Virus record (IMG/VR): IMGVR_UViG_2713896795_000006
Span: 1 to 7,905 of that record
Reading direction: 5' to 3' (one strand)
Source of the DNA: a virus
Lineage: Duplodnaviria; Heunggongvirae; Uroviricota; Caudoviricetes
Length of the DNA: 7,905 nt
Below the pieces are notes generated by a model that saw nothing but the letters and a program-made list of their open reading frames with translations, was not told the DNA's origin and ran no database searches. Below, in pieces: positions 1-7,905 of the stretch. The position numbers and the translations under genes are program-made. How positions within the stretch are numbered: position 1 is the first letter of the stretch; every line of letters starts with the position of its first letter.

Positions 1-1131
1 TCAAATGACCAGTTTTTTCCACTCCTTGCCGCGTGCATCGTTGTAAATATCGGTCATTTTTTGATTCGAATGACCCAGCAAAATTTGGGTATCAATTCCC
101 TGCTCTCTGAACAATCGCTCTGATAAAGATCTCTGCTCATGGAAAGAGGGTGGGGTGCCATTAGCACGCCAGTTGTAATCCACAGAATCCCGCGCTTTTT
201 TAAATGCAACGGTTAACGTTGCTGGCTTAACCATCCCGCCGCGCTTAGCTGTCCCTTTCGCGTGATGATGGTGCAATAGCCACGGACTAAGAACGCAATC
301 GCGACAGGATGACACCACATCATCCAGGGTGAGATTTAATTTATCGCAACGCAGAGCCAGAGGGATGGCAATCCGGGTTCCTGTTTTTTGCTGTTCGACA
401 TGAAGATAACCATCCCGGATATCCGAAAATTGCATTTTGCAAATATCTGAAAGGCGCTGGCCTGTCATCAGTGCCAGCAGCATACCGCGCTGTAAAAAGT
501 AACCATCCTTTTCCGCTGCGTTATAAATCATCGTCCACTCATCAAAAGTCAGTCGCTGTCTTGATATCCGCACCTGTGGTTTTTTTGCCGATTCTGCAGG
601 GTTAAAGCCTGGCGGGACATCGCCCGTTTGCTGAGCCTCCCGGAAAACATCGATCAGTACCTTCCTGAAAATTTGTCCCATTCTGTTATGTCCTCTGGAC
701 TTGTACTCTTCCAGCACCGATACCACATCCTTTACGGTTATGGCATCTAACGGTCTGGTGCCAAAACGTTCATCAAAAACCCTGAGAGGGGCCGCTTTCT
801 GTTTCAGCGTGTTGAGTTTGATTTCTCCGTTTTCATATCTTTCCTGTTGAATTTTTCTGTAATTATTCAGAAAAATGGAAACGGTTGATGAACCGCCGGT
901 ATCATTAATAATTTTCTCCTGCAGACTGAGCATTTGCTCCATTTGTTGTCTGGCAAGACGGCTGTTCGCTTCTGCTGCAATGGTTTCCGCCAGTTTCTGG
1001 TCAATACTGCCGAGTCCATGATTTTTACCTGTGATGGGATGCCTGTAACGCCAGTAAACTTTGTTATTTCTTTTGTCAAAATACGGAGATAATCCCGGAA
1101 CAGCGGTTTTATATTTTCGCGGGCGTGCCAT
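1..1131 (-). CDS. int: Phage tyrosine integrase (lambda Int-like), 376 aa, complete; stop codon at window positions 1-3
   Basis: ORF track 1..1131 (-). C-terminus ...LLGHSNQKMTDIYNDARGKEWKKLVI closely parallels the lambda Int C-terminus (LLGH...Y..DRG.EW) carrying the catalytic Tyr. N-terminus MARPRKYK...KVYWRYRHPITGK resembles the arm-binding domain of lambda-family integrases. SD-like AGAGGA about 9 nt upstream of the ATG at 1131. The 5' end overlaps the upstream excisionase gene by 23 nt, the typical xis-int arrangement. Confidence 0.9.
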   Translation of the reverse strand: MARPRKYKTAVPGLSPYFDKRNNKVYWRYRHPITGKNHGLGSIDQKLAETIAAEANSRLARQQMEQMLSLQEKIINDTGGSSTVSIFLNNYRKIQQERYENGEIKLNTLKQKAAPLRVFDERFGTRPLDAITVKDVVSVLEEYKSRGHNRMGQIFRKVLIDVFREAQQTGDVPPGFNPAESAKKPQVRISRQRLTFDEWTMIYNAAEKDGYFLQRGMLLALMTGQRLSDICKMQFSDIRDGYLHVEQQKTGTRIAIPLALRCDKLNLTLDDVVSSCRDCVLSPWLLHHHHAKGTAKRGGMVKPATLTVAFKKARDSVDYNWRANGTPPSFHEQRSLSERLFREQGIDTQILLGHSNQKMTDIYNDARGKEWKKLVI

Positions 1132-1357
1132 CTTCCAGTATCCTCTTTAAAGCAGGGTGATCTGTGGCGATCACCTCCGGCTTGTTTACCATTCCGACAA
1201 AGCGAGCTCGCGGATCCACTCGCCAGTGTCTTCCAACTTTTTTGGGGAGAGGAAATATCATTCCGGCTTTAGCGTATTTACTTAACGTGCCCGGAGTAGG
1301 GACCGGATCGCTGAATTCCTCTTTTGCCCACTCAGTGAGCAGAATAAGTCTTGCCAT
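1109..1357 (-). CDS. xis: Excisionase (lambda Xis-like), 82 aa
   Basis: ORF track 1109..1357 (-). N-terminal segment LILLTEWAKEE...GMIFPLPKKVGRHWRV aligns by eye with lambda Xis (LTLQEWNARQ...CRIFPPPVKDGREY). Sits immediately upstream of and overlapping int. No strong SD before the ATG at 1357, so the start is slightly uncertain. Confidence 0.75.
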   Translation of the reverse strand: MARLILLTEWAKEEFSDPVPTPGTLSKYAKAGMIFPLPKKVGRHWRVDPRARFVGMVNKPEVIATDHPALKRILEDGTPAKI

Positions 1358-1420
1358 GAGTATCGTTCGCTAATCATGGTCGCCGCCACTATAGCTGGGG
1401 GCGACGACCGGGGTTGAACA

Positions 1421-3892
1421 TTAAAAATCAGACTGATTCGGGATCAGTTTTTGCCAGATTGCTGAAACGTATTTCGCCTGGTGACGGGCATCATCCAGCG
1501 CATTGTGGCGTATGCCTTCGAATTGAATAGGCGTCCTGGCATCGAAGTCTATGGATTTTCCCAGTTCAATGATTGTGCGTACATCGCGATCGTTGTAGTA
1601 GCGCCACGGGCAGGGGATACCCTGCCGTTCATATGAACGGCGTAAAATCACGTTGTCGAAGTTGGCTCCATTTCCCCAGACCTGAACAAAAAATTCACCG
1701 GAGTTTTCGTCGATAAATTCCCGCAATTGCAGTAGTGCATCATCTAACGGAATTTCATCGGTCAGAATGGCAGATTGCGCCTCACGTGATTGCTTCAGCC
1801 ACCATTTAATGACGTCACGATCAATGACTCCGCCAGCAGTATCCAGATCGATGGTCTTGCTAAATTCCGGTCCCATATCTCCGGTTTGTGGATCGAAAAA
1901 TATTGCGCCTATTGAGATAATCGGGGCATCGGGATTTTTTCCCATGGTTTCAAGGTCGATCATCAGATGAATCCCCGCTCTGCTGGTGGATGTGAGTTTA
2001 TGATGACCGTTCACCTCAATTAAGGGATCTGTCGCCTCGCCAGTTTTATTATCGCTGGCGTGATGCTGATTGCCGCCAGGGTTCTCCTTGTGTGGATGTT
2101 CAGCGCCTTCCATTTCCTCCGGATCATTTTCCTGAACTTCAACCTGATTCTCTTCATCGAATGTTTCCTGGTATGTTGCGTCGCCCATCACCGCGCCACA
2201 ATCAGGGCAGTTGCCGCCACAGCTCTGACCGCAGGCGGTGCAGACTTTTTCCGGTTCCTGTTGCGCTACTGGTTCGGATTGTTTCGTTTCTGGCTCGTTT
2301 TGTAACGCATTTGGGCTGTTTTGTTCCGCTTTTTGGTCGTTCTGTTCCGATTCTTGCTGGTTCTGGTTTACAGAATCGCGGGTTTCAATCCCCTTCACCC
2401 ATTTCGGATCATTCGGGTCGCTAATCCCTGCAACAAATTCTCCGCGAGAGGCAGCAAGCAACTTATCGGCGTCAGGCTGGCTGATATTGGCTGCCTGCAT
2501 AATTTTGTTTACTTCTTCAGCGGTAACTTTTACCGGCTCTGGTTGTGCGGTCGTGTCAGATGCACCAGTATTTTGTTGTGAGCCTGAGTATGTACCGTTT
2601 TTGCGGGCAAAATATTCTTCTTTCGTGATTTCAGTAGCCCCTGCAGTCAGCGCCTTATTCAGACCAGAAAGTTTGTTTGCACGACCATATTTTTCGCCAT
2701 CTTTATCTGTGAAGAGGAAGTAGAACGGCCCCTCACGCTCTACAGATGGTTCGACTTCCACTTTGCATTCGGTTTTTTCGTTGTCCGGAATTGCCGTTTC
2801 CACTGCATCAGTTTCTGGTACTGGCGACGAGAGAGTATCAGTTGCGCTCTGATTTGTTCCTTCATCTTCAAACACGCCCTTTGTAGTCAGGTATTCAGTA
2901 ATGTATTTGTTCAGTGCCACAGGGTCTTTGTGAATGTCGATCGGACGTTCACGGACAAGGCCAAAAATAGTCTGGCGGTCGTAGCGAAGGGCATCAGGCT
3001 GTTTGCGCATTGATGCCGAGATACGCTTCCAGTCTTCGCGGTCGTTGTCGATAACTTCATTTTTTGCCCAGCGATGGATGCTGCCGTCAATGTTTCCGGC
3101 ATCAATGTCATCAGGCCACAGAGCGTAGGCCAGTTCATCATCCAGTGTTTTCCATGTCTGCTTGTATTCGCGACGAATGGTGGCAGTGGCTGGGGGGATT
3201 TTCGCTACTGAGTTTTCAGTGTTCTGCCGGTTGACTCTGGCGCGGGCAAGATCAACAACAGACATGTATTTCCCGGTTTCTTTGCGTTCGGCTTCGCGAC
3301 GTTTTTTCCAGGTGCGTAATTCTGTCTGGATCTCAGGCCATTTTGCACCCGGCTTACATTTATGTTTAACCCACCCGATGGCGAGCAGCTTAAGCTCTGA
3401 ATACATGACGTTAACTTCAGGCATTTTCATCAATGCCTCAACGATATGCCCATCGAATGTTGCCATGTCTTCCTGCAGTAATTCCTGAGCACTAATCACC
3501 ATATCAACGGTGATGTTTTCACATGTACCGAACTTAACCAGGACCGCGTTCTGTACTTCAAGGGACAGCTTGTCAAAATTGACGTTCATCGGATCGGATT
3601 CTGGTTCGACCGGAATAAAGGAAGCGGATTCCTCATCCCAGCGGTTTTCCTGCATATATTCGGTATCCCAGGAGTCGATAGCAGGGCGGGGCATGCCGGG
3701 TTTATCCTCGCAGACAAGAAATTTATAAGCGCAGTCCTGAGCAGCCGGATATTGCTCCAGGAATTGCCAGGTAAATTTGGCACGGGCGCGGCGTTCGTCA
3801 CCGGCTTCAATGGCAGTGGCTACAGCAACTGCACCTTCTTCCTTTATTGCCTGTTCGTCCGGAATGGCGGCGCAAATAAAGACTTTACTCAT
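1421..3892 (-). CDS. Large prophage exonuclease, 823 aa: C-terminal DnaQ/Orn-like DEDDh 3'-5' exonuclease domain, Cys-rich zinc-knuckle, acidic Q/E/N-rich linker; commonly annotated in prophages as exodeoxyribonuclease VIII-like
   Basis: ORF track 1421..3892 (-). The C-terminal about 190 aa carry the three DEDDh motifs: motif I LMIDLETMG, motif II VWGNGANFDNVIL (Orn-like GNSxxxD), motif III IRHNALDDARHQAKY (Orn-like HxALDD...Y). Upstream are a Cys cluster CTACGQSCGGNCPDCG and a low-complexity acidic stretch (NQNQQESEQNDQKAEQNSP...EPETKQSEPVAQQEPEK). It sits between xis and the dicB-like module, where lambda has exo/bet and Rac has recE/recT. SD GAGG about 10 nt upstream of the ATG at 3892. 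Confidence 0.8.
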   Translation of the reverse strand: MSKVFICAAIPDEQAIKEEGAVAVATAIEAGDERRARAKFTWQFLEQYPAAQDCAYKFLVCEDKPGMPRPAIDSWDTEYMQENRWDEESASFIPVEPESDPMNVNFDKLSLEVQNAVLVKFGTCENITVDMVISAQELLQEDMATFDGHIVEALMKMPEVNVMYSELKLLAIGWVKHKCKPGAKWPEIQTELRTWKKRREAERKETGKYMSVVDLARARVNRQNTENSVAKIPPATATIRREYKQTWKTLDDELAYALWPDDIDAGNIDGSIHRWAKNEVIDNDREDWKRISASMRKQPDALRYDRQTIFGLVRERPIDIHKDPVALNKYITEYLTTKGVFEDEGTNQSATDTLSSPVPETDAVETAIPDNEKTECKVEVEPSVEREGPFYFLFTDKDGEKYGRANKLSGLNKALTAGATEITKEEYFARKNGTYSGSQQNTGASDTTAQPEPVKVTAEEVNKIMQAANISQPDADKLLAASRGEFVAGISDPNDPKWVKGIETRDSVNQNQQESEQNDQKAEQNSPNALQNEPETKQSEPVAQQEPEKVCTACGQSCGGNCPDCGAVMGDATYQETFDEENQVEVQENDPEEMEGAEHPHKENPGGNQHHASDNKTGEATDPLIEVNGHHKLTSTSRAGIHLMIDLETMGKNPDAPIISIGAIFFDPQTGDMGPEFSKTIDLDTAGGVIDRDVIKWWLKQSREAQSAILTDEIPLDDALLQLREFIDENSGEFFVQVWGNGANFDNVILRRSYERQGIPCPWRYYNDRDVRTIIELGKSIDFDARTPIQFEGIRHNALDDARHQAKYVSAIWQKLIPNQSDF

Positions 3893-3972
3893 TTTGTTTT
3901 AACCTCATTACAGATTTAAGGGTGAACAAATCCCTGCCATTGCTGGCATCTAAAAATGAAACCGGATATTAA

Positions 3973-4176
3973 TTACGGTGCTGCTTTAAGTCCTGCCGGG
4001 ATTTCGTTATTGTCCATGCGAATAACTTTATCAACCGGATAACAGTTGCCGGGAATTTTCTGTTCCGCTGCGGCAGCCATGCATTCTTTCATTGAGTCAT
4101 GTATACCAATAACAAGATCGACTGGTTCGCCTGTATTAAGAAAAACTGTCAGAACGAGTGCAAATGCTGTATTCAT
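3973..4176 (-). CDS. ydfD: Small hydrophobic-N-terminus protein, 67 aa, YdfD-like (DUF1482-type prophage protein)
   Basis: Internal ATG of ORF-track ORF 3973..4230, giving MNTAFALVLTVFLNTGEPVD...IPGNCYPVDKVIRMDNNEIPAGLKAAP. SD AAGGA 8 nt upstream. The ATG lies 2 nt after the dicB-like stop (TGAcaATG), suggesting translational coupling. Same position as ydfD downstream of dicB in Qin. Family assignment is from memory, not searched. Confidence 0.65.
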   Translation of the reverse strand: MNTAFALVLTVFLNTGEPVDLVIGIHDSMKECMAAAAEQKIPGNCYPVDKVIRMDNNEIPAGLKAAP

Positions 4177-4178
4177 TG

Positions 4179-4361
4179 TCAGCGTCCTTTTTGCATCAGG
4201 CGTAAACGGGCCAGCATTGAAACAATGCATATTTTATTTAATAACTCCCGTTCGTGTTTTCTCTTATTAATGGCATCTTCAGTAAATACAGGGTTACTGA
4301 TTCTGACACCAATTTCAAAACAACCTTCAGACGTATTAACGTTTGGTAATAACGTTTCCAT
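4179..4361 (-). CDS. dicB: DicB-like cell-division inhibitor, 60 aa
   Basis: ATG-initiated part of ORF-track ORF 4179..4466: METLLPNVNTSEGCFEIGVRISNPVFTEDAINKRKHERELLNKICIVSMLARLRLMQKGR, which closely matches my recollection of E. coli DicB (MKTLLPNVNTSEGCFEIGV...). SD GAGGA 7 nt upstream of the ATG at 4361. The longer track ORF begins with GTG at 4466 and has no support. Lies downstream of DicF, as in the Qin dicB operon. Confidence 0.8.
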   Translation of the reverse strand: METLLPNVNTSEGCFEIGVRISNPVFTEDAINKRKHERELLNKICIVSMLARLRLMQKGR

Positions 4362-4530
4362 TATCGCGTCCTCAACAATGAATTTTGTGATGCGGTGCCT
4401 GGTGCCTCCAGGTGACGTTAACCAGTTAACAATTAACGCCGGATACAGAGAATCCACCCATAACACTGTTTTTGGTTTTAACTGTTCCGCGTGCGCTTAG
4501 CCGCATTCACCACATCACAAAATTCACTTT

Positions 4531-4570
4531 AAAAAGGGCGGCAGAGCAGTCACGGAGTAAAACTGATACC
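4531..4570 (-). terminator. Intrinsic terminator forming the 3' end of DicF
   Basis: On the minus strand, GGCGGTA...(loop)...CTGCCGCC stem followed directly by TTTTT (plus 4531-4535 AAAAA). The stem is about 7 bp including one G-U pair. Confidence 0.6.
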
Positions 4571-4588
4571 GCCAAACGTCACCAGAAA
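4536..4588 (-). ncRNA. dicF: DicF small regulatory RNA (53 nt, ftsZ-targeting, Hfq-dependent family)
   Basis: The reverse complement of 4536..4588 reads TTTCTGGTGACGTTTGGCGGTATCAGTTTTACTCCGTGACTGCTCTGCCGCCC and is followed by TTTTT (plus 4531-4535). This matches the DicF sequence as I remember it, including the 3' GC-rich stem (GGCGG...GCCGCC) and U-tract. Position between the ydfB-like and dicB-like genes matches the Qin dicB operon. Confidence 0.85.
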
Positions 4589-4924
4589 ATTGATAACAGA
4601 GGGCGTTGCAGCGAGGTTGTCACTTAAGCGTATGGTCAACCTGACAACCCGGTGTCCTCAACGGGGGAAGGAATAACCCCGCCATACTTACCGCCGCGCC
4701 ATTTCGCGGATTGCCACAACCGGAAGCGCACGGTCGAAGTAATTTAACGACAAACCTCATAGGTGAAGGCCTTCGCCGTACGCTTTTGTGTTATGCCCTG
4801 ACTTTTCAGGGAAATATCCTTTCAGTAAACTGTCAGTGCCGGATTCTTATCCGTGTCCGGCGCACGACCACACGTAGCAGCGTGTTGGTCTCCATTTTTA
4901 ATTCAGCCCTTAATGGAGGATAAA

Positions 4925-5192
4925 ATGGCAAAATTTACAGTCAGGATCGAACTTCGCGATTCCAGTTCCGCTGATTACGATAAGCTTCATGGGATTCTCC
5001 AGAACGATTACAACCTCTTTAGGGAACACCTACCGTCTTCCTAATGCCGAATATATATATTCAAGCAAGAATGAAGACAAAGAATCTGTTGCTGACCTTG
5101 CTGAATCAGTGGCCTCAAAAGTTAAGAAAAATCCCGGAGTTCTTGTTACCGAATCTAATGGGCGCTATGTAAAAAACTTAGATGATGCTTAA
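4925..5192 (+). pseudogene. Small plus-strand gene split across two frames (39-aa ORF 4925..5044 with strong RBS, plus overlapping 67-aa ORF 4989..5192 with no RBS); probably a single gene of about 90 aa disrupted by an indel, or a coupled pair
   Basis: Strong SD GGAGGA (4915-4920) 4 nt before the ATG at 4925 gives MAKFTVRIELRDSSSADYDKLHGILQNDYNLFREHLPSS*. The second frame is open from 4914, but its only start is the ATG at 4989 with no SD; it encodes MGFSRTITTSLGNTYRLPNAEYIYSSKNEDKESVADLAESVASKVKKNPGVLVTESNGRYVKNLDDA. The frames overlap over 4989-5044. Orientation is opposite to all flanking genes. Confidence 0.4.
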
Positions 5193-5335
5193 CCTTCATC
5201 ATCACGACCTGACTCAATAGCGTGCAATGCCAGCCAGATGCGGGCTTCAGTGCCTGCATTTGGTTCCAGTTGCTGGAGGCGTTTTGCATCCTCCAGAAGC
5301 AGAGCGATAACGTGTTTTAATTCTGTTTCGTTCAT
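5189..5335 (-). CDS. Small hypothetical protein, 48 aa (YdfB/YdaG-type position in the operon)
   Basis: Not in the ORF track (below its length cutoff). ATG at 5335 (plus 5333-5335 CAT) preceded by SD AGGTG; the start lies 1 nt after the ydfA-like stop (TAAaATG). Translation: MNETELKHVIALLLEDAKRLQQLEPNAGTEARIWLALHAIESGRDDEG*. Stop at 5189-5191. Confidence 0.55.
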   Translation of the reverse strand: MNETELKHVIALLLEDAKRLQQLEPNAGTEARIWLALHAIESGRDDEG

Positions 5336-5336
5336 T

Positions 5337-5492
5337 TTATTCACCTGAATGTCTTACCAACCAACGACGCGCGCCAGATTCGGTTTTAAACGTTTTGCTT
5401 TTTGTATACGTCATCGCCGTGAACGTTCCGTCCTGGTTGGGAAACACGCCGCACACCAGAGATTCGTTGTTGCCAAGATCGATAGTTTCCAT
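5337..5492 (-). CDS. ydfA: Small prophage protein, 51 aa, YdfA/YdaF-like; first gene of the leftward (dicB-type) operon
   Basis: Not in the ORF track (below cutoff). ATG at 5492 with SD GAGG 4-5 nt upstream; stop TAA at 5337-5339. Translation: METIDLGNNESLVCGVFPNQDGTFTAMTYTKSKTFKTESGARRWLVRHSGE. The length (51 aa) and first-gene position match YdfA of Qin. Homology is recalled, not searched. Confidence 0.6.
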   Translation of the reverse strand: METIDLGNNESLVCGVFPNQDGTFTAMTYTKSKTFKTESGARRWLVRHSGE

Positions 5493-5671
5493 GTTGACCT
5501 CATTTCCCCTTATCGCCGGGGTAGCGGAACAAAAACCTGCTGCATAGTTAAAAGTTGAACCCTGCCGTCACTTTCGAATGCCTCGGGCTGGCTACATTGA
5601 CCCCTGATCACCTGCCGGGTAACTCGAAGTATTGCCCTGCGTTCTGTGGGGCGGGGTGGGTTGGTATTTGT

Positions 5672-5699
5672 AGTTTAATAAACATTAAACATAAGTCAA
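5672..5699 (-). promoter_or_regulatory. Candidate early-left promoter (PL-like) for the ydfA-ydfB-dicF-dicB operon: -35 TTGACT (plus 5694-5699), 16-bp spacer, -10 TAAACT (plus 5672-5677)
   Basis: Minus-strand hexamers are identical to those of the candidate rightward promoter at 6687-6716. An operator-like motif AAAACTAAAC at 5703-5712 resembles the AAACACTAAAC repeats in the divergent region. Sequence-based prediction only. Confidence 0.4.
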
Positions 5700-5722
5700 G
5701 CAAAAACTAAACCACAGAGCAC

Positions 5723-5761
5723 AACAACCGCAACGCTTTTGATAAAGTCGTTGCGGTTGTT
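5723..5761 (-). terminator. Strong hairpin 22 nt downstream of the parE2-like stop; probable terminator or insulator of the repressor-antitoxin-toxin operon
   Basis: Perfect 13-bp stem AACAACCGCAACG (5723-5735) with CGTTGCGGTTGTT (5749-5761), loop 5736-5748, extendable by CTTT/AAAG with one bulge. Flanking U-rich stretches on both strands are imperfect, so this may act as a weak or bidirectional terminator. Confidence 0.45.
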
Positions 5762-5783
5762 ATGTTTCTATTGGTGGTGAAAG

Positions 5784-6062
5784 TTAGGGAAACTGGCGTC
5801 TTGCGTGGATCACGTTTACTACTTCAACGCTTGATGTTGTTACGCGGTATAGAACTATATAGTTAGGGTGGGCCACAATCTCACGCAAGCCAGGAACTCT
5901 GTCGCTTGGTGGGTATAAATACGGGTGTTCGGATAACGGTAACACACAACCCCTTAATCGCTGCCATAAGCGCTCTGCCGCATCTATGTCGAAACGAGCA
6001 ATATAACTAGTTATATCATCTAGGTCGGTATCTGCGCTTTCAAGCCATAACACGGGTAACAT
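5784..6062 (-). CDS. parE2: ParE/RelE-family type II toxin, 92 aa (ParE2-like)
   Basis: Internal ATG of ORF-track ORF 5784..6158: MLPVLWLESADTDLDDITSYIARFDIDAAERLWQRLRGCVLPLSEHPYLYPPSDRVPGLREIVAHPNYIVLYRVTTSSVEVVNVIHARRQFP. The C-terminus (YIVLYRV...VEVVNVIHARR) is typical of ParE/RelE toxins. The start lies 1 nt after the antitoxin stop (TAAaATG). Confidence 0.9.
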   Translation of the reverse strand: MLPVLWLESADTDLDDITSYIARFDIDAAERLWQRLRGCVLPLSEHPYLYPPSDRVPGLREIVAHPNYIVLYRVTTSSVEVVNVIHARRQFP

Positions 6063-6063
6063 T

Positions 6064-6255
6064 TTACTGCTTGCTCCGTTCCTTGCGCATTTTAGCAAAG
6101 CGTTCTGCCATTCTGCGCTCAACTTCGTCATGGGGAATTGCTGGGCGCGGATCTGCAAGGCTCGTTGCTACTTTCGCACGCAGCCATTCGTTGTAACTGT
6201 TTTCTTGTTCAATGGTATCAAACTCAGAAACCATTGGTGAAAGGGCTCTATTCAT
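6064..6255 (-). CDS. paaA2: Small antitoxin, 63 aa (PaaA2-like)
   Basis: Internal ATG of ORF-track ORF 6064..6309: MNRALSPMVSEFDTIEQENSYNEWLRAKVATSLADPRPAIPHDEVERRMAERFAKMRKERSKQ. Strong SD GGAGGA 5 nt upstream of the ATG at 6255. Matches my recollection of the 63-aa PaaA2 antitoxin of the E. coli O157 paaR2-paaA2-parE2 system. Sits directly upstream of the ParE-like toxin. Confidence 0.85.
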   Translation of the reverse strand: MNRALSPMVSEFDTIEQENSYNEWLRAKVATSLADPRPAIPHDEVERRMAERFAKMRKERSKQ

Positions 6256-6275
6256 GTTTCCTCCGGTTTTATAAC

Positions 6276-6647
6276 TCAGGCGCGGCGGCATTTTTGCGCC
6301 GCAATCCATCTCGCTATGAGATCTTCCATTGATTCTTTTTTCTGTTTTAACTCGCTGATTATCTGGCGTTGCTCATCCTCAGGGAAGGCTGAAAAAATCT
6401 GCAATAATTCCAGTTGATTAGACGTTAATCCTGCATGCGGTGGAGAAACCTCTGGTTGTTCTGCGTATTCCGCATCCAGATACCCCTCCGGCATCCCGTA
6501 TGTTTGCTCTATTCTTCTGGCTGCCTTTTCTCCAAACGAGGCTCTCCCACTCATTAGCTGAGATAGGTAGCTCTTCTCTTTGGGTGGCAGAGTTTTATCT
6601 TTAAACCACTCCTTGAGACGTAAACGGCGAATTTCTTTTTTTTGCAT
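6276..6647 (-). CDS. paaR2: HTH (XRE/cI-like) transcriptional repressor lacking a peptidase domain, 123 aa (PaaR2-like; C-terminal region DicA-like)
   Basis: ATG at 6647 within ORF-track ORF 6276..6710 (the track start at 6710 is GTG). N-terminal HTH-like segment KSYLSQLMSGRASFGEKAARRIEQTYGMPEGYLD. C-terminal LTSNQLELLQIFSAFPEDEQRQIISELK resembles the DicA C-terminus (LSPKELELLELFNALPESEQ...). No SD before the ATG, and a -10-like GATAAT lies 7 nt upstream, consistent with a leaderless, cI-like transcript. First gene of the three-gene operon. Confidence 0.8.
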   Translation of the reverse strand: MQKKEIRRLRLKEWFKDKTLPPKEKSYLSQLMSGRASFGEKAARRIEQTYGMPEGYLDAEYAEQPEVSPPHAGLTSNQLELLQIFSAFPEDEQRQIISELKQKKESMEDLIARWIAAQKCRRA

Positions 6648-6744
6648 GTGGTAATTATCTTTAGTAATCACTAAACAAGCAAATACTTGACTTAATGGTT
6701 TATTAAACACTAAACTTGCAAAAAAACACTAAACCGAGGAAGGT
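6648..6744. promoter_or_regulatory. Divergent promoter/operator region between the repressor and the cro-like gene: three direct repeats AA(A/T)CACTAAAC, candidate PR (-35 TTGACT 6687-6692, -10 TAAACT 6711-6716) and candidate leaderless PRM-like promoter (minus strand; -35 TTGCTT = plus 6677-6682, -10 GATAAT = plus 6654-6659)
   Basis: CACTAAAC occurs at 6669-6676, 6708-6715 and 6727-6734 (spacings 39 and 19 bp); the second copy overlaps the PR -10 and the third the predicted start region. The 97-bp AT-rich interval lies between divergently oriented regulator genes. Sequence-based prediction only. Confidence 0.5.
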
Positions 6745-7047
6745 ATGACATTAAAAGAGTTTATTAAATCATTGAGGGTTGGTGATGCCAAGAAATTCGC
6801 GGCCAGACTTGGTGTATCGCCATCTTACCTATCGCAAATGGCGTCTGGACGAGCAGCGATATCTCCAACCCGCGCCCTTATGATCGAATCTGCGACGGAA
6901 GGCCAAGTAAGTAGGGCGGAGCTACGGCCCCATGATTGGGAGATTATTTGGCCTGAGTATGCGCGCGGTATTCGTTTGGGGCAAACGCATGTAGCTCATG
7001 CTGAAGGTGATTGTAGTGCATGCTTATCTGATGGAGTTGATTCATGA
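6745..7047 (+). CDS. ydaS: Cro-like HTH regulator, YdaS family, 100 aa
   Basis: ORF track 6745..7047 (+). Strong SD GAGGAAGG 4 nt upstream. Segment LGVSPSYLSQMASGRAAISPTRALMIESATEGQVSRAELRP matches the YdaS-type HTH pattern (LGVSP...P...IE.AT.G.V....LRP). Stop overlaps the next gene start (ATGA). Confidence 0.85.
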   Translation: MTLKEFIKSLRVGDAKKFAARLGVSPSYLSQMASGRAAISPTRALMIESATEGQVSRAELRPHDWEIIWPEYARGIRLGQTHVAHAEGDCSACLSDGVDS

Positions 7048-7469
7048 AAATCAAGCATGAACACATCCGCATGGCGATGAATGCCTGGGCGCATCCGGAC
7101 GGCGAGAAAGTTCCGGCTGCAGAGATTACCAAAGCGTATTTTGAACTGGGAATGACGTTTCCGGAACTGTACGACGATTCACACCCAGAAGCCCTGGCTC
7201 GCAATACTCAGAAGATTTTCCGCTGGGTGGAGAAAGATACTCCTGATGCGGTTAAAAAAATTCAGGCGTTGTTACCAGCGATCGAAAAGGCAATGCCGCC
7301 ACCGCTGGTGGCCCGAATGCGTAGTCACAGTTCGGAGTATCACCGGGAGATTGTCGAGCGACGGGATCGGCTGGTGAAAGATATCGATGAGTTCGTTGCA
7401 TCAGCGATCGTTCTGTTCGACCAGATGAATCGCGGTGGTCCGGCAGGAAATGCCGTGGCGGTGCATTGA
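7044..7469 (+). CDS. ydaT: YdaT-family protein, 141 aa (putative CII-like regulator or toxic protein of Rac-type prophages)
   Basis: ORF track 7044..7469 (+). N-terminal MKIKHEHI... is characteristic of YdaT as recalled. Start codon overlaps the ydaS stop (ATGA), indicating translational coupling. Confidence 0.8.
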   Translation: MKIKHEHIRMAMNAWAHPDGEKVPAAEITKAYFELGMTFPELYDDSHPEALARNTQKIFRWVEKDTPDAVKKIQALLPAIEKAMPPPLVARMRSHSSEYHREIVERRDRLVKDIDEFVASAIVLFDQMNRGGPAGNAVAVH

Positions 7470-7539
7470 CTGGCAATATTTATACTGGATCGCTTCCGGT
7501 AGTGCGTGATTAAGAGATTCGGTATCAGAAGAGGCAATT

Positions 7540-7905
7540 ATGGCCGCATTACCATACATGCAACTGTACATAGCTGATTACCTGGCCGACACCATGCATT
7601 TGTCAGCAGAGGAGCATGGTGCGTATTTGTTGCTGATGTTCAATTACTGGCAAACAGGAAAGCCAATACCTAAAAACAGGCTGGCAAAAATTGCCCGTCT
7701 GACTAACGAGCGATGGGCTGATGTTGAACCATCCTTGCGGGAGTTTTTTTGCGATAACGGCGATGAATGGATGCACCTTCGGATTGAGGAAGATCTGGCA
7801 TCAGTCAGGGAAAAATCAATAAAAAAATCGGCTGCGGGAAAAGCATCTGTTCAGGCCAGGAGAAACAGAAAGGAATCATATGCTCAAACAAAACACGAGC
7901 GAAAT
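7540..7905 (+). CDS. ydaU: DUF1376/YdaU-like prophage protein, N-terminal 122 codons; 3' end beyond the window
   Basis: Not in the ORF track because no stop lies in the window. ATG at 7540 with SD GAAGAGG 5 nt upstream; open to the window end. Translation MAALPYMQLYIADYLADTMHLSAEEHGAYLLLMFNYWQTGKPIPKNRLAKIARLTNERWADVEPSLREFF... fits the DUF1376 signature (Y.aDYL.DT.HLS..EHGAYLLL...YW..G.P.P). Confidence 0.8.
   Translation, partial: MAALPYMQLYIADYLADTMHLSAEEHGAYLLLMFNYWQTGKPIPKNRLAKIARLTNERWADVEPSLREFFCDNGDEWMHLRIEEDLASVREKSIKKSAAGKASVQARRNRKESYAQTKHERN

Follow-up and report, generated by a model that had tools for sequence, protein, structure and literature searches.

Which circuit governs a Qin-like dicF–dicB module that is joined to an immunity region of another type, and do transcripts from that region reach the small RNA? 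We addressed this question in a 7,905-nt stretch of Caudoviricetes DNA (IMG/VR record IMGVR_UViG_2713896795_000006, positions 1–7,905; hereafter the window). As read from the sequence, the region 3973–5492 is very likely the promoter-proximal portion of a lambdoid prophage's leftward early (PL) operon, with the whole module, from a ydfA-like to a ydfD-like gene, on the minus strand. Sequence comparison establishes what each part is, the match between promoter and operators and the mosaic boundaries. As lambdoid mosaics go, the window is routine: it carries the PL operon of an ordinary lambda-like E. coli prophage.

DicF and the flanking module genes

DicF (53 nt, positions 4536–4588, minus strand) matches RF00039 over its full length (1–52 of 52; 76.7 bits against a gathering score of 48; E = 4.5e-16). 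Aligned to E. coli K-12 dicF, it is identical at 53 of 53 positions, with zero mismatches in the ftsZ-pairing region, and its other target-pairing regions (manX, xylR, pykA, pchA) are likewise as in the characterised K-12 RNA. No broken or non-canonical pairs were flagged in the stem, and the G+C terminator stem with the following CUUUUU (U-run at 4535–4531) is intact, confirming the claim of an earlier note on this DNA that DicF appears intact with its terminator.

The DicF precursor region (4589–4866, minus strand), defined by alignment with Qin and O157, is structured (z = −3.2) and nearly identical to both from ~4740 on; the ~190-nt RNA that RNase III produces in Qin has its counterpart at ~4725–4536. 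The 5′ end of this 190-nt form depends on RNase III in K-12, and in Qin DicF arises only via processing of the transcript from dicBp, the Qin equivalent of PL, with no internal promoter found (bioRxiv 10.1101/2023.04.14.536235). The dicF–dicB spacer, which forms the dicB 5′ leader (4362–4535, minus strand), differs from its Qin and O157 counterparts by 2–5 mismatches in ~175 nt. It folds at −72.3 kcal/mol (z = −5.6) and contains a perfect ~21-bp helix (5′ arm ~4528–4508) with three hairpins inside. RNase III probably cuts in this helix to give the 72-nt form of DicF, a species described as an RNase III product (PMC9438474). A sub-threshold match to STnc100 in the same spacer (37.7 bits; threshold, 47) was rejected as a separate sRNA gene, since the folded dicB leader with its RNase III site explains it better (PMC9438474).

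Following dicF on the same strand, in Qin-type order, are a dicB-like gene (60 aa, 4179–4361; PF05358, 128 bits), whose product is identical to K-12 DicB at 55 of 59 residues, and a ydfD-like gene (DUF1482, 67 aa, 3973–4176; PF07358, 81 bits). Farther downstream, the exonuclease gene (823 aa) is intact, as are xis and int. At the other end of the module, the ydfA-like gene (DUF1391, 51 aa, 5337–5492, minus strand; PF07151, 99.9 bits; 46/51 residues identical to K-12 YdfA) is the first gene after PL, 173 nt downstream of the predicted transcription start.

Replacement of ydfB and ydfC

The Qin operon order proposed earlier holds for the ydfA-like gene, DicF, dicB-like and ydfD-like, and fails for the ORF that had been called ydfB-like. 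This short ORF (48 aa from its ATG, 5189–5335, minus strand; also given from 5344) has no similarity to YdfB: a tblastn search of the window with K-12 YdfB gave no hit at E ≤ 10, ruling out a divergent YdfB. It matches phrog_30817 (E = 2e-25) and has 33 of 42 residues in common with the N-terminal end of YmfJ from e14, and RefSeq annotates its counterpart as a partial pseudogene. On these matches the ORF is an N-terminal ymfJ-like fragment, which replaces ydfB by position and not by homology. Its ATG is placed 1 nt past the ydfA stop, a junction that Qin shares between ydfA and its next gene.

The absence of ydfC, also noted earlier, was verified with K-12 YdfC (tblastn against the window, no hit at E ≤ 10). 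Its place is occupied by a convergent, inactivated GhoS/DUF2622-like (YmfI-like) gene (4925–5192, plus strand), in which a 17-bp deletion after ~4991 splits the reading frame. An intact 94-aa version is present in E24377A, and PapM-36-2 carries the identical 17-bp deletion. The name GhoS is taken from the RefSeq annotation; even the unbroken homologue in E24377A reaches 19.2 bits with PF11080 GhoS, short of the cut-off of 21, and the gene of the window matches phrog_8894 (E = 3e-23) and, weakly, YmfI_phage. Where Qin has ydfB and ydfC, the window thus has the ymfJ-like fragment and the convergent GhoS-like pseudogene. The e14 ymfI–ymfJ genes of K-12 likewise form a convergent pair downstream of a CI-like repressor gene; YmfJ of e14, however, has 102 aa against 48 aa for the ORF here, and the plus-strand partner in the window, unlike that of e14, is frameshifted and only distantly YmfI-like.

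As a result of this layout, ~600 nt between the ymfJ-like stop (5189) and dicF (4588), including the GhoS-like antisense, are without a credible minus-strand ORF, compared with an untranslated gap of 340 nt before dicF in Qin. In the untranslated interval, rut-like C-rich, G-poor stretches were sought, and none was seen past the leader's first 80 nt. Less DicF and DicB could be made if Rho-dependent polarity or convergent transcription comes into play.

A PaaR2-type immunity region and its PL-type promoter

The assignment of the immunity region to the PaaR2 type, and not to DicA/DicC, was upheld: it encodes PaaR2/PaaA2/ParE2 together with YdaS/YdaT. The repressor operon with its embedded toxin–antitoxin pair (5784–6647, minus strand; paaR2 6647–6276, paaA2 6255–6064, parE2 6062–5784) diverges from ydaS (Cro analogue, 6745–7047) and ydaT (CII analogue, 7044–7469) on the plus strand (6745–7469), with the OR/PRM/PR region between paaR2 and ydaS at 6650–6744. 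Identities to the O157 CP-933P-type proteins are 121/123 for PaaR2, 62/63 for PaaA2 and 91/92 for ParE2; YdaS and YdaT agree with O157 at 96/100 and 127/141 residues, and OR agrees with that of O157 CP-933P at 110 of 111 positions. Pfam matches comprise PF21217 (PaaA2), PF05016 (ParE), and PF15943 and PF06254 in ydaS/ydaT. No DicA or DicC homologue was detected in the window by tblastn; the C-terminal third of PaaR2 weakly resembles DicA (E = 9e-7).

By consensus scan, the only sigma-70-like minus-strand promoter between parE2 and dicF is a PL-type promoter at 5672–5699 (−35 TTGACT at 5699–5694, 16-nt spacer, −10 TAAACT at 5677–5672), with a predicted start near 5665. Its hexamers are the same as those of PR (TTGACT-18-TAAACT, 6687–6716; consensus scan) and of O157 PL933P, to which PL is near-identical. 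The −10 hexamer and spacer are overlapped by the OL operator element GTTTAATAAACATTAAAC (5673–5690), an 18-mer from OR that matches the window only at 5673–5690, 6659–6676 and 6698–6715 (three hits, with none expected in 200 shuffles), and repeat families D1, D2 and I1 connect the OL and OR regions. The PR-like hexamers, the confinement of the operator to OL and OR, and the CP-933P identity together bear out the earlier view that a promoter under PaaR2 control probably drives the module.

The untranslated leader from PL to ydfA (5493–5665, minus strand) is common to prophages with other immunity types. A structured put-like or nut-like PL leader was considered and rejected, the leader being less structured than shuffled controls (z = +1.8). 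Neither an N-like antiterminator nor a put-like structure turned up, so we assume from the Qin example that transcripts read past the DicF terminator into dicB. A strong hairpin (5720–5764, minus strand; −36.6 kcal/mol, z = −8.3; inverted repeat I2) separates the parE2 stop from PL and is probably the terminator of the paaR2 operon, though no U-run directly follows it.

PL933P is active and is repressed ~100-fold by PaaR2 and also ~100-fold by YdaS, both of which leave footprints in the OR/PRM/PR region of CP-933P; PaaR2 is without an autocleavage domain, and ParE2 release is uncoupled from the switch state (PMC8630535). That 2021 study used a plasmid with the immunity region only, gave the ORFs downstream of PL933P no function and nowhere named DicF (PMC8630535). 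Since YdaS represses PL933P too, loss of PaaR2 alone need not switch the operon on (PMC8630535), and the earlier prediction that derepression yields both DicF and DicB is too simple. The repression by YdaS, the missing autocleavage domain and the uncoupled ParE2 leave the suggested link between toxin–antitoxin state and cell division a matter of inference.

Relatives and mosaic boundaries

Compared with Qin, the cryptic K-12 prophage with ydfABC-dicF-dicB-ydfDE, the window has an identical DicF, a nearly identical precursor, terminator and spacer, and homologous dicB, ydfD and ydfA, with 88.9% nucleotide identity over 3126–4866 and 5333–5530. In both, the dicBF operon lies downstream of a CI-like repressor gene, as the PL-equivalent. 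The two differ in their regulators, DicA with DicC in Qin and PaaR2 with YdaS in the window, acting at different operators, and in that ydfE and intQ of Qin are pseudogenes whereas the exonuclease gene, xis and int of the window are intact.

Prophages of the CP-933P/Sp12 type in O157:H7 share with the window DicF, dicB, DUF1482, exonuclease, xis and int in order, and DicF and dicB have already been placed behind the same immunity region there (PMC5069750). A dicF module behind a PaaR2 immunity region is hence not an unusual arrangement, being on record in O157:H7; EHEC has four dicF copies (PMC7873438). The prophage of strain Z563, which served as the O157 relative in this comparison, lies beside ompW. 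From PL to the DicF precursor it carries ECs_2282 (opposite strand) and ydfC, in contrast to the window with its ydfA, ymfJ-like ORF and inactivated GhoS-like gene; elsewhere the DNA is ~93% identical. In another locus (L012), an identical PaaR2 protein is encoded upstream of the full ydfABC-dicF-dicB set.

Prophages inserted beside ompW in E. coli PapM-36-2 and C8 have a left arm 99.7% identical to window positions 1–5671, including the GhoS-like 17-bp deletion, DicF and dicB, whereas the repressor in their immunity cassette is an autocleavable one of the LexA family and the Cro is another. Identity to these prophages breaks at 5671/5672 on the left and ~7038 on the right. The heteroimmune boundary falls exactly at 5671/5672, just past the −10 hexamer, indicating that promoter and operators are exchanged as part of the immunity cassette and that the transcribed leader stays attached to the left arm. 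In its closest relatives this prophage type is integrated beside ompW. The parE2–PL–ydfA junction occurs in 238 of 5426 complete E. coli genomes; the full mosaic was found in none of the complete E. coli genomes, and a 43-nt pattern across the 5671 junction had no match in genome contigs.

Expression of the module

In our preferred reading, transcription would begin at the PL-type promoter (5699–5672, minus strand), with its operators bound by CI-like PaaR2 and Cro-like YdaS, both supplied by the adjacent CP-933P-type immunity cassette. The transcript would cross ydfA, the ymfJ-like ORF and the GhoS-like antisense strand before entering the conserved DicF precursor, where RNase III, RNase E and termination at the DicF hairpin would free the 53-nt RNA for pairing with ftsZ and other mRNAs. 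Read-through RNA would be cut by RNase III in the long spacer helix and would express dicB (MinC-dependent division inhibition), ydfD, exonuclease, xis and int. Repression of PL by PaaR2/YdaS and processing of Qin DicF have been shown by others on near-identical DNA; we infer that transcription from PL extends to dicF and dicB in this phage, and that PaaR2/YdaS switching alters the DicF/DicB level.

The exchange of ydfB and ydfC might instead have left a module that is present but transcriptionally uncoupled from PL, with DicF and DicB silent whatever the state of PaaR2, if Rho or interference stops most PL transcripts in the long untranslated, antisense-overlapped stretch. The ORF-free 600 nt (5189–4588), a convergent GhoS-like gene that still has its upstream region and the lack of any recognised antitermination element would fit such a block; we nevertheless consider it improbable, as the interval shows no pronounced excess of C over G of the kind seen at rut sites and a scan found no intrinsic terminator-like site on the minus strand anywhere between PL and dicF. 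Moreover, the same cassette precedes DicF in two other complete genomes at 99.7% identity, the tight conservation of the DicF precursor would be unexpected for a dead module, and Qin makes DicF from dicBp despite its own 340-nt untranslated gap (bioRxiv 10.1101/2023.04.14.536235).

Less credible still is an internal promoter for DicF and possibly dicB, located either in the spacer or in the conserved 280 nt that precede dicF, that would make expression independent of the immunity switch (for example, stationary-phase or low-oxygen induced): block 4589–4866 persists in every mosaic, with all that lies upstream of it exchanged, and an older study, as cited in bioRxiv 10.1101/2023.04.14.536235, proposed a promoter upstream of dicB, but the consensus scan gave no minus-strand promoter between 5672 and 4362, K-12 primer extension and Northern blots gave none either (bioRxiv 10.1101/2023.04.14.536235), and RNase III/RNase E processing signals suffice to explain the conservation of the block.

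Implications

Beyond annotation, the window itself matters little. What it illustrates is that DicF/dicB is a portable PL-operon cassette of lambdoid prophages, pairing freely with differing immunity cassettes and small-gene 'filler' cassettes. We tentatively raise the possibility, which we hold to be rather doubtful, that the bistable PaaR2/YdaS switch in its native prophage context drives heterogeneous bursts of DicF and DicB from PL, and that the toxin–antitoxin pair stabilises a circuit whose physiological output is the dicBF module. If so, a subpopulation of cells would filament, rewire its metabolism or turn phage-resistant. Independently of this particular window, the PaaR2/YdaS switch should set DicF and DicB levels in CP-933P-type prophages, O157:H7 included, a prediction that owes its interest to the effect of DicF on virulence gene expression in EHEC.

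Organization of the dicB operon

The module at 3973-5492 is real and was correctly located, and the whole of it lies on the minus strand. The earlier note, which had described a Qin-type order of ydfA-like, ydfB-like, DicF, dicB-like and ydfD-like, misnamed one gene and missed both the strand and a convergent pseudogene. Four of the five elements stand by Pfam, Rfam or K-12 identity, the protein-coding ones being a ydfA-like gene (5492-5337, minus strand; DUF1391, 99.9 bits; 46 of 51 residues identical to K-12 YdfA), dicB (4361-4179, minus strand; 60 aa; Pfam DicB, 128 bits; 55 of 59 identical to K-12 DicB) and a ydfD-like gene (4176-3973, minus strand; DUF1482, 81 bits). Downstream on the same strand follow an intact 823-aa exonuclease (1421-3892), then the excisionase and integrase. 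At its C-terminus the exonuclease has an Rv2179c-like 3'-5' exoribonuclease domain (220 bits), and its middle region is Cys-rich and of low complexity. What survives of the gene in Qin is the pseudogene ydfE, with the alignment reaching window position 3126. The window starts exactly with the integrase stop codon (gene at 1-1131, minus strand); in the closest relatives ompW lies ~45 bp past that stop, which makes the neighborhood of ompW the integration site of this prophage type.

The exception is the ORF at 5335-5189 (minus strand), called ydfB-like in the earlier note. Relationship to YdfB was rejected: local alignment gave nothing, and tblastn of K-12 YdfB and YdfC against the window returned no matches at E<=10, a result that also upholds the absence of ydfC. 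The ORF occupies ydfB's place, with its ATG one base past the ydfA stop, and is ymfJ-like, matching phrog_30817 and sharing 33 of its first 42 residues with YmfJ of the e14 prophage (102 aa); its counterpart in a near-identical prophage is labeled a partial pseudogene in RefSeq. In ydfC's place lies a GhoS/DUF2622-like (YmfI-like) gene (4925-5192, plus strand), convergent with the PL operon. A 17-bp deletion relative to the intact 94-aa gene of E. coli E24377A and strain 'numer 3' shifts its reading frame, and PapM-36-2 and C8 carry this deletion too. The GhoS name is taken from RefSeq; even the intact homologue scores 19.2 bits with Pfam GhoS, under the cut-off of 21, and no GhoT-like toxin gene is evident adjoining 4925-5192.

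DicF and its processing signals

DicF (4587-4536, minus strand) matches its Rfam model over the full length with no base pairs broken (76.7 bits, gathering score 48; E = 4.5e-16). With base 4588 included, the sequence agrees with E. coli K-12 dicF at 53 of 53 positions, including the ftsZ-pairing region, where a mismatch would speak against the assignment, and its GGCGG...CCGCC stem is followed by CUUUUU, bearing out an intact RNA with its terminator. In Qin, DicF originates solely from processing of the transcript of the PL-equivalent promoter, into a 190-nt form via RNase III and a 53-nt form via RNase E, and an internal promoter was not found (bioRxiv 10.1101/2023.04.14.536235). An alternative 72-nt form arises when RNase III cuts read-through RNA (PMC9438474).

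From ~4740 to the dicB start codon, near-identity with Qin and O157 exceeds the conservation of the flanking genes, and the region of the DicF precursor is more stably folded than its shuffled versions (z = -3.2). In the dicF-dicB spacer (4362-4535, minus strand), almost invariant among Qin, O157 and the window, three hairpins are enclosed by a perfectly paired long-range helix of ~21 bp (z = -5.6). RNase III probably cuts here to make the 72-nt form, since a distance of 72 nt, counted from the 5' end of DicF, reaches into the 5' arm of the helix, in agreement with the known cut. The same structure accounts for a sub-threshold Rfam match to STnc100 in the spacer (37.7 bits, threshold 47); in Salmonella, STnc100 may represent the homologous dicB/kil leader.

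Promoter and immunity region

A consensus scan of 3900-6800 gave two minus-strand sigma-70-like sites, one within parE2 and the other at 5699-5672 (TTGACT-16-TAAACT), a PL-type promoter that probably drives the module and whose hexamers are those of PR (6687-6716, plus strand; TTGACT-18-TAAACT). With <=3 mismatches allowed, the 18-bp element GTTTATTAAACACTAAAC at PR has two further copies and no others, one at 6659-6676 and one at 5673-5690 that overlaps the leftward promoter (three matches in all against 0 expected). From PL to dicF, the scan detected no further promoter and no terminator-like site on the minus strand. In CP-933P of O157, PaaR2 (121/123), PaaA2 (62/63), ParE2 (91/92) and YdaS (96/100) are nearly identical to those of the window, as is the OR region (110/111), and the PL region aligns with few substitutions. 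Jurenas et al. reported that the -35/-10 elements of PL933P are identical to those of PR933P, that three OL operators are present, and that PL933P is repressed ~100-fold by PaaR2 and also by YdaS (PMC8630535).

A strong hairpin (5720-5764; -36.6 kcal/mol, z = -8.3), located after the parE2 stop and before the -35 hexamer of PL, probably ends the paaR2 repressor operon; the minus strand has no U-run directly after it, and a bidirectional terminator is a possible alternative. The C-terminal third of PaaR2 (residues 70-119; gene 6276-6647, minus strand) is similar to the DicA C-terminus (NCBIfam PRK09706, E 9e-7), with the common motif LELLxxFxAxPExEQ in local alignment. By this similarity an oligomerisation domain may be common to both repressors, whereas their DNA-binding regions and operators differ.

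Mosaic structure and distribution

Qin matches the window at 3126-4866 and 5333-5530 (88.9% identity), the O157:H7 CP-933P-type prophage adjoining ompW at 1-4866 (92.6%) and 5503-7465 (93.9%), the ompW prophage of PapM-36-2 (and C8) at 1-5671 (99.7%) and 7038-7905 (98.4%), and strain 'numer 3' at 4611-7465 (97.0%). From this pattern of identities, two known phage types seem to have recombined to give the window. In the heteroimmune PapM-36-2/C8 prophages, a LexA-family repressor sits between the two matching segments. The left boundary, 5671/5672, falls directly downstream of the PL -10 hexamer, so that promoter and operators are part of the immunity cassette, with the leader that is transcribed belonging to the left arm; the right boundary (~7038) lies at the ydaS end, making YdaT common to both immunity types.

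The full combination occurs in none of the complete E. coli genomes in the collection, and species-representative genomes, scanned for the exact pattern, gave no match. The parE2-PL-ydfA junction occurs in 238/5426 complete E. coli genomes, and the DicF precursor plus spacer in 4080/5426, at a median of two places per genome. The dicBF locus is on record in CP-933O, CP-933M and CP-933P (PMC5069750), EHEC strains carry four dicF copies (PMC7873438), and dicB or kil 3' of paaR2 was noted by Jurenas et al. (PMC8630535). At the O157 locus, DicF was confirmed downstream of PL933P and ydfC. A PaaR2 identical to the window's occurs in a very large number of assemblies, next to left operons of differing content, one of them a complete ydfA-ydfB-ydfC-dicF-dicB set (locus L012). 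Among the other loci with this PaaR2, L007, L008, L011 and L013 carry dicB without a DicF reaching the Rfam threshold, and L014 carries DicF followed by kilR; with L005 and L006, these loci present DicF and dicB as separable cassettes. E24377A and 'numer 3' retain the precursor region to ~4611 and lack DicF itself, which in E24377A is replaced by isrK and C4 antisense RNAs with a Rha protein.

Possible coupling of the immunity switch to DicF and DicB

That derepression would produce DicF and DicB, tying toxin-antitoxin state to division, is a reasonable inference, yet simpler than the known circuit permits: YdaS also represses PL933P, PaaR2 lacks an autocleavage domain and is thus not SOS-inducible, and ParE2 activity is uncorrelated with the switch state (PMC8630535). 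From the ymfJ-like stop to dicF there are 600 nt (340 nt in Qin) that go untranslated and overlap the dead GhoS-like gene in antisense, and polarity or convergent transcription over this interval could lower the DicF/DicB yield. No rut-like C-rich stretch was seen in the interval, and no antitermination structure was found in the PL leader. Architecturally, the region joins known modules in the way usual for lambdoid mosaics, and for the putative link between the PaaR2/YdaS switch and DicF/DicB output, CP-933P itself is the better object of study.
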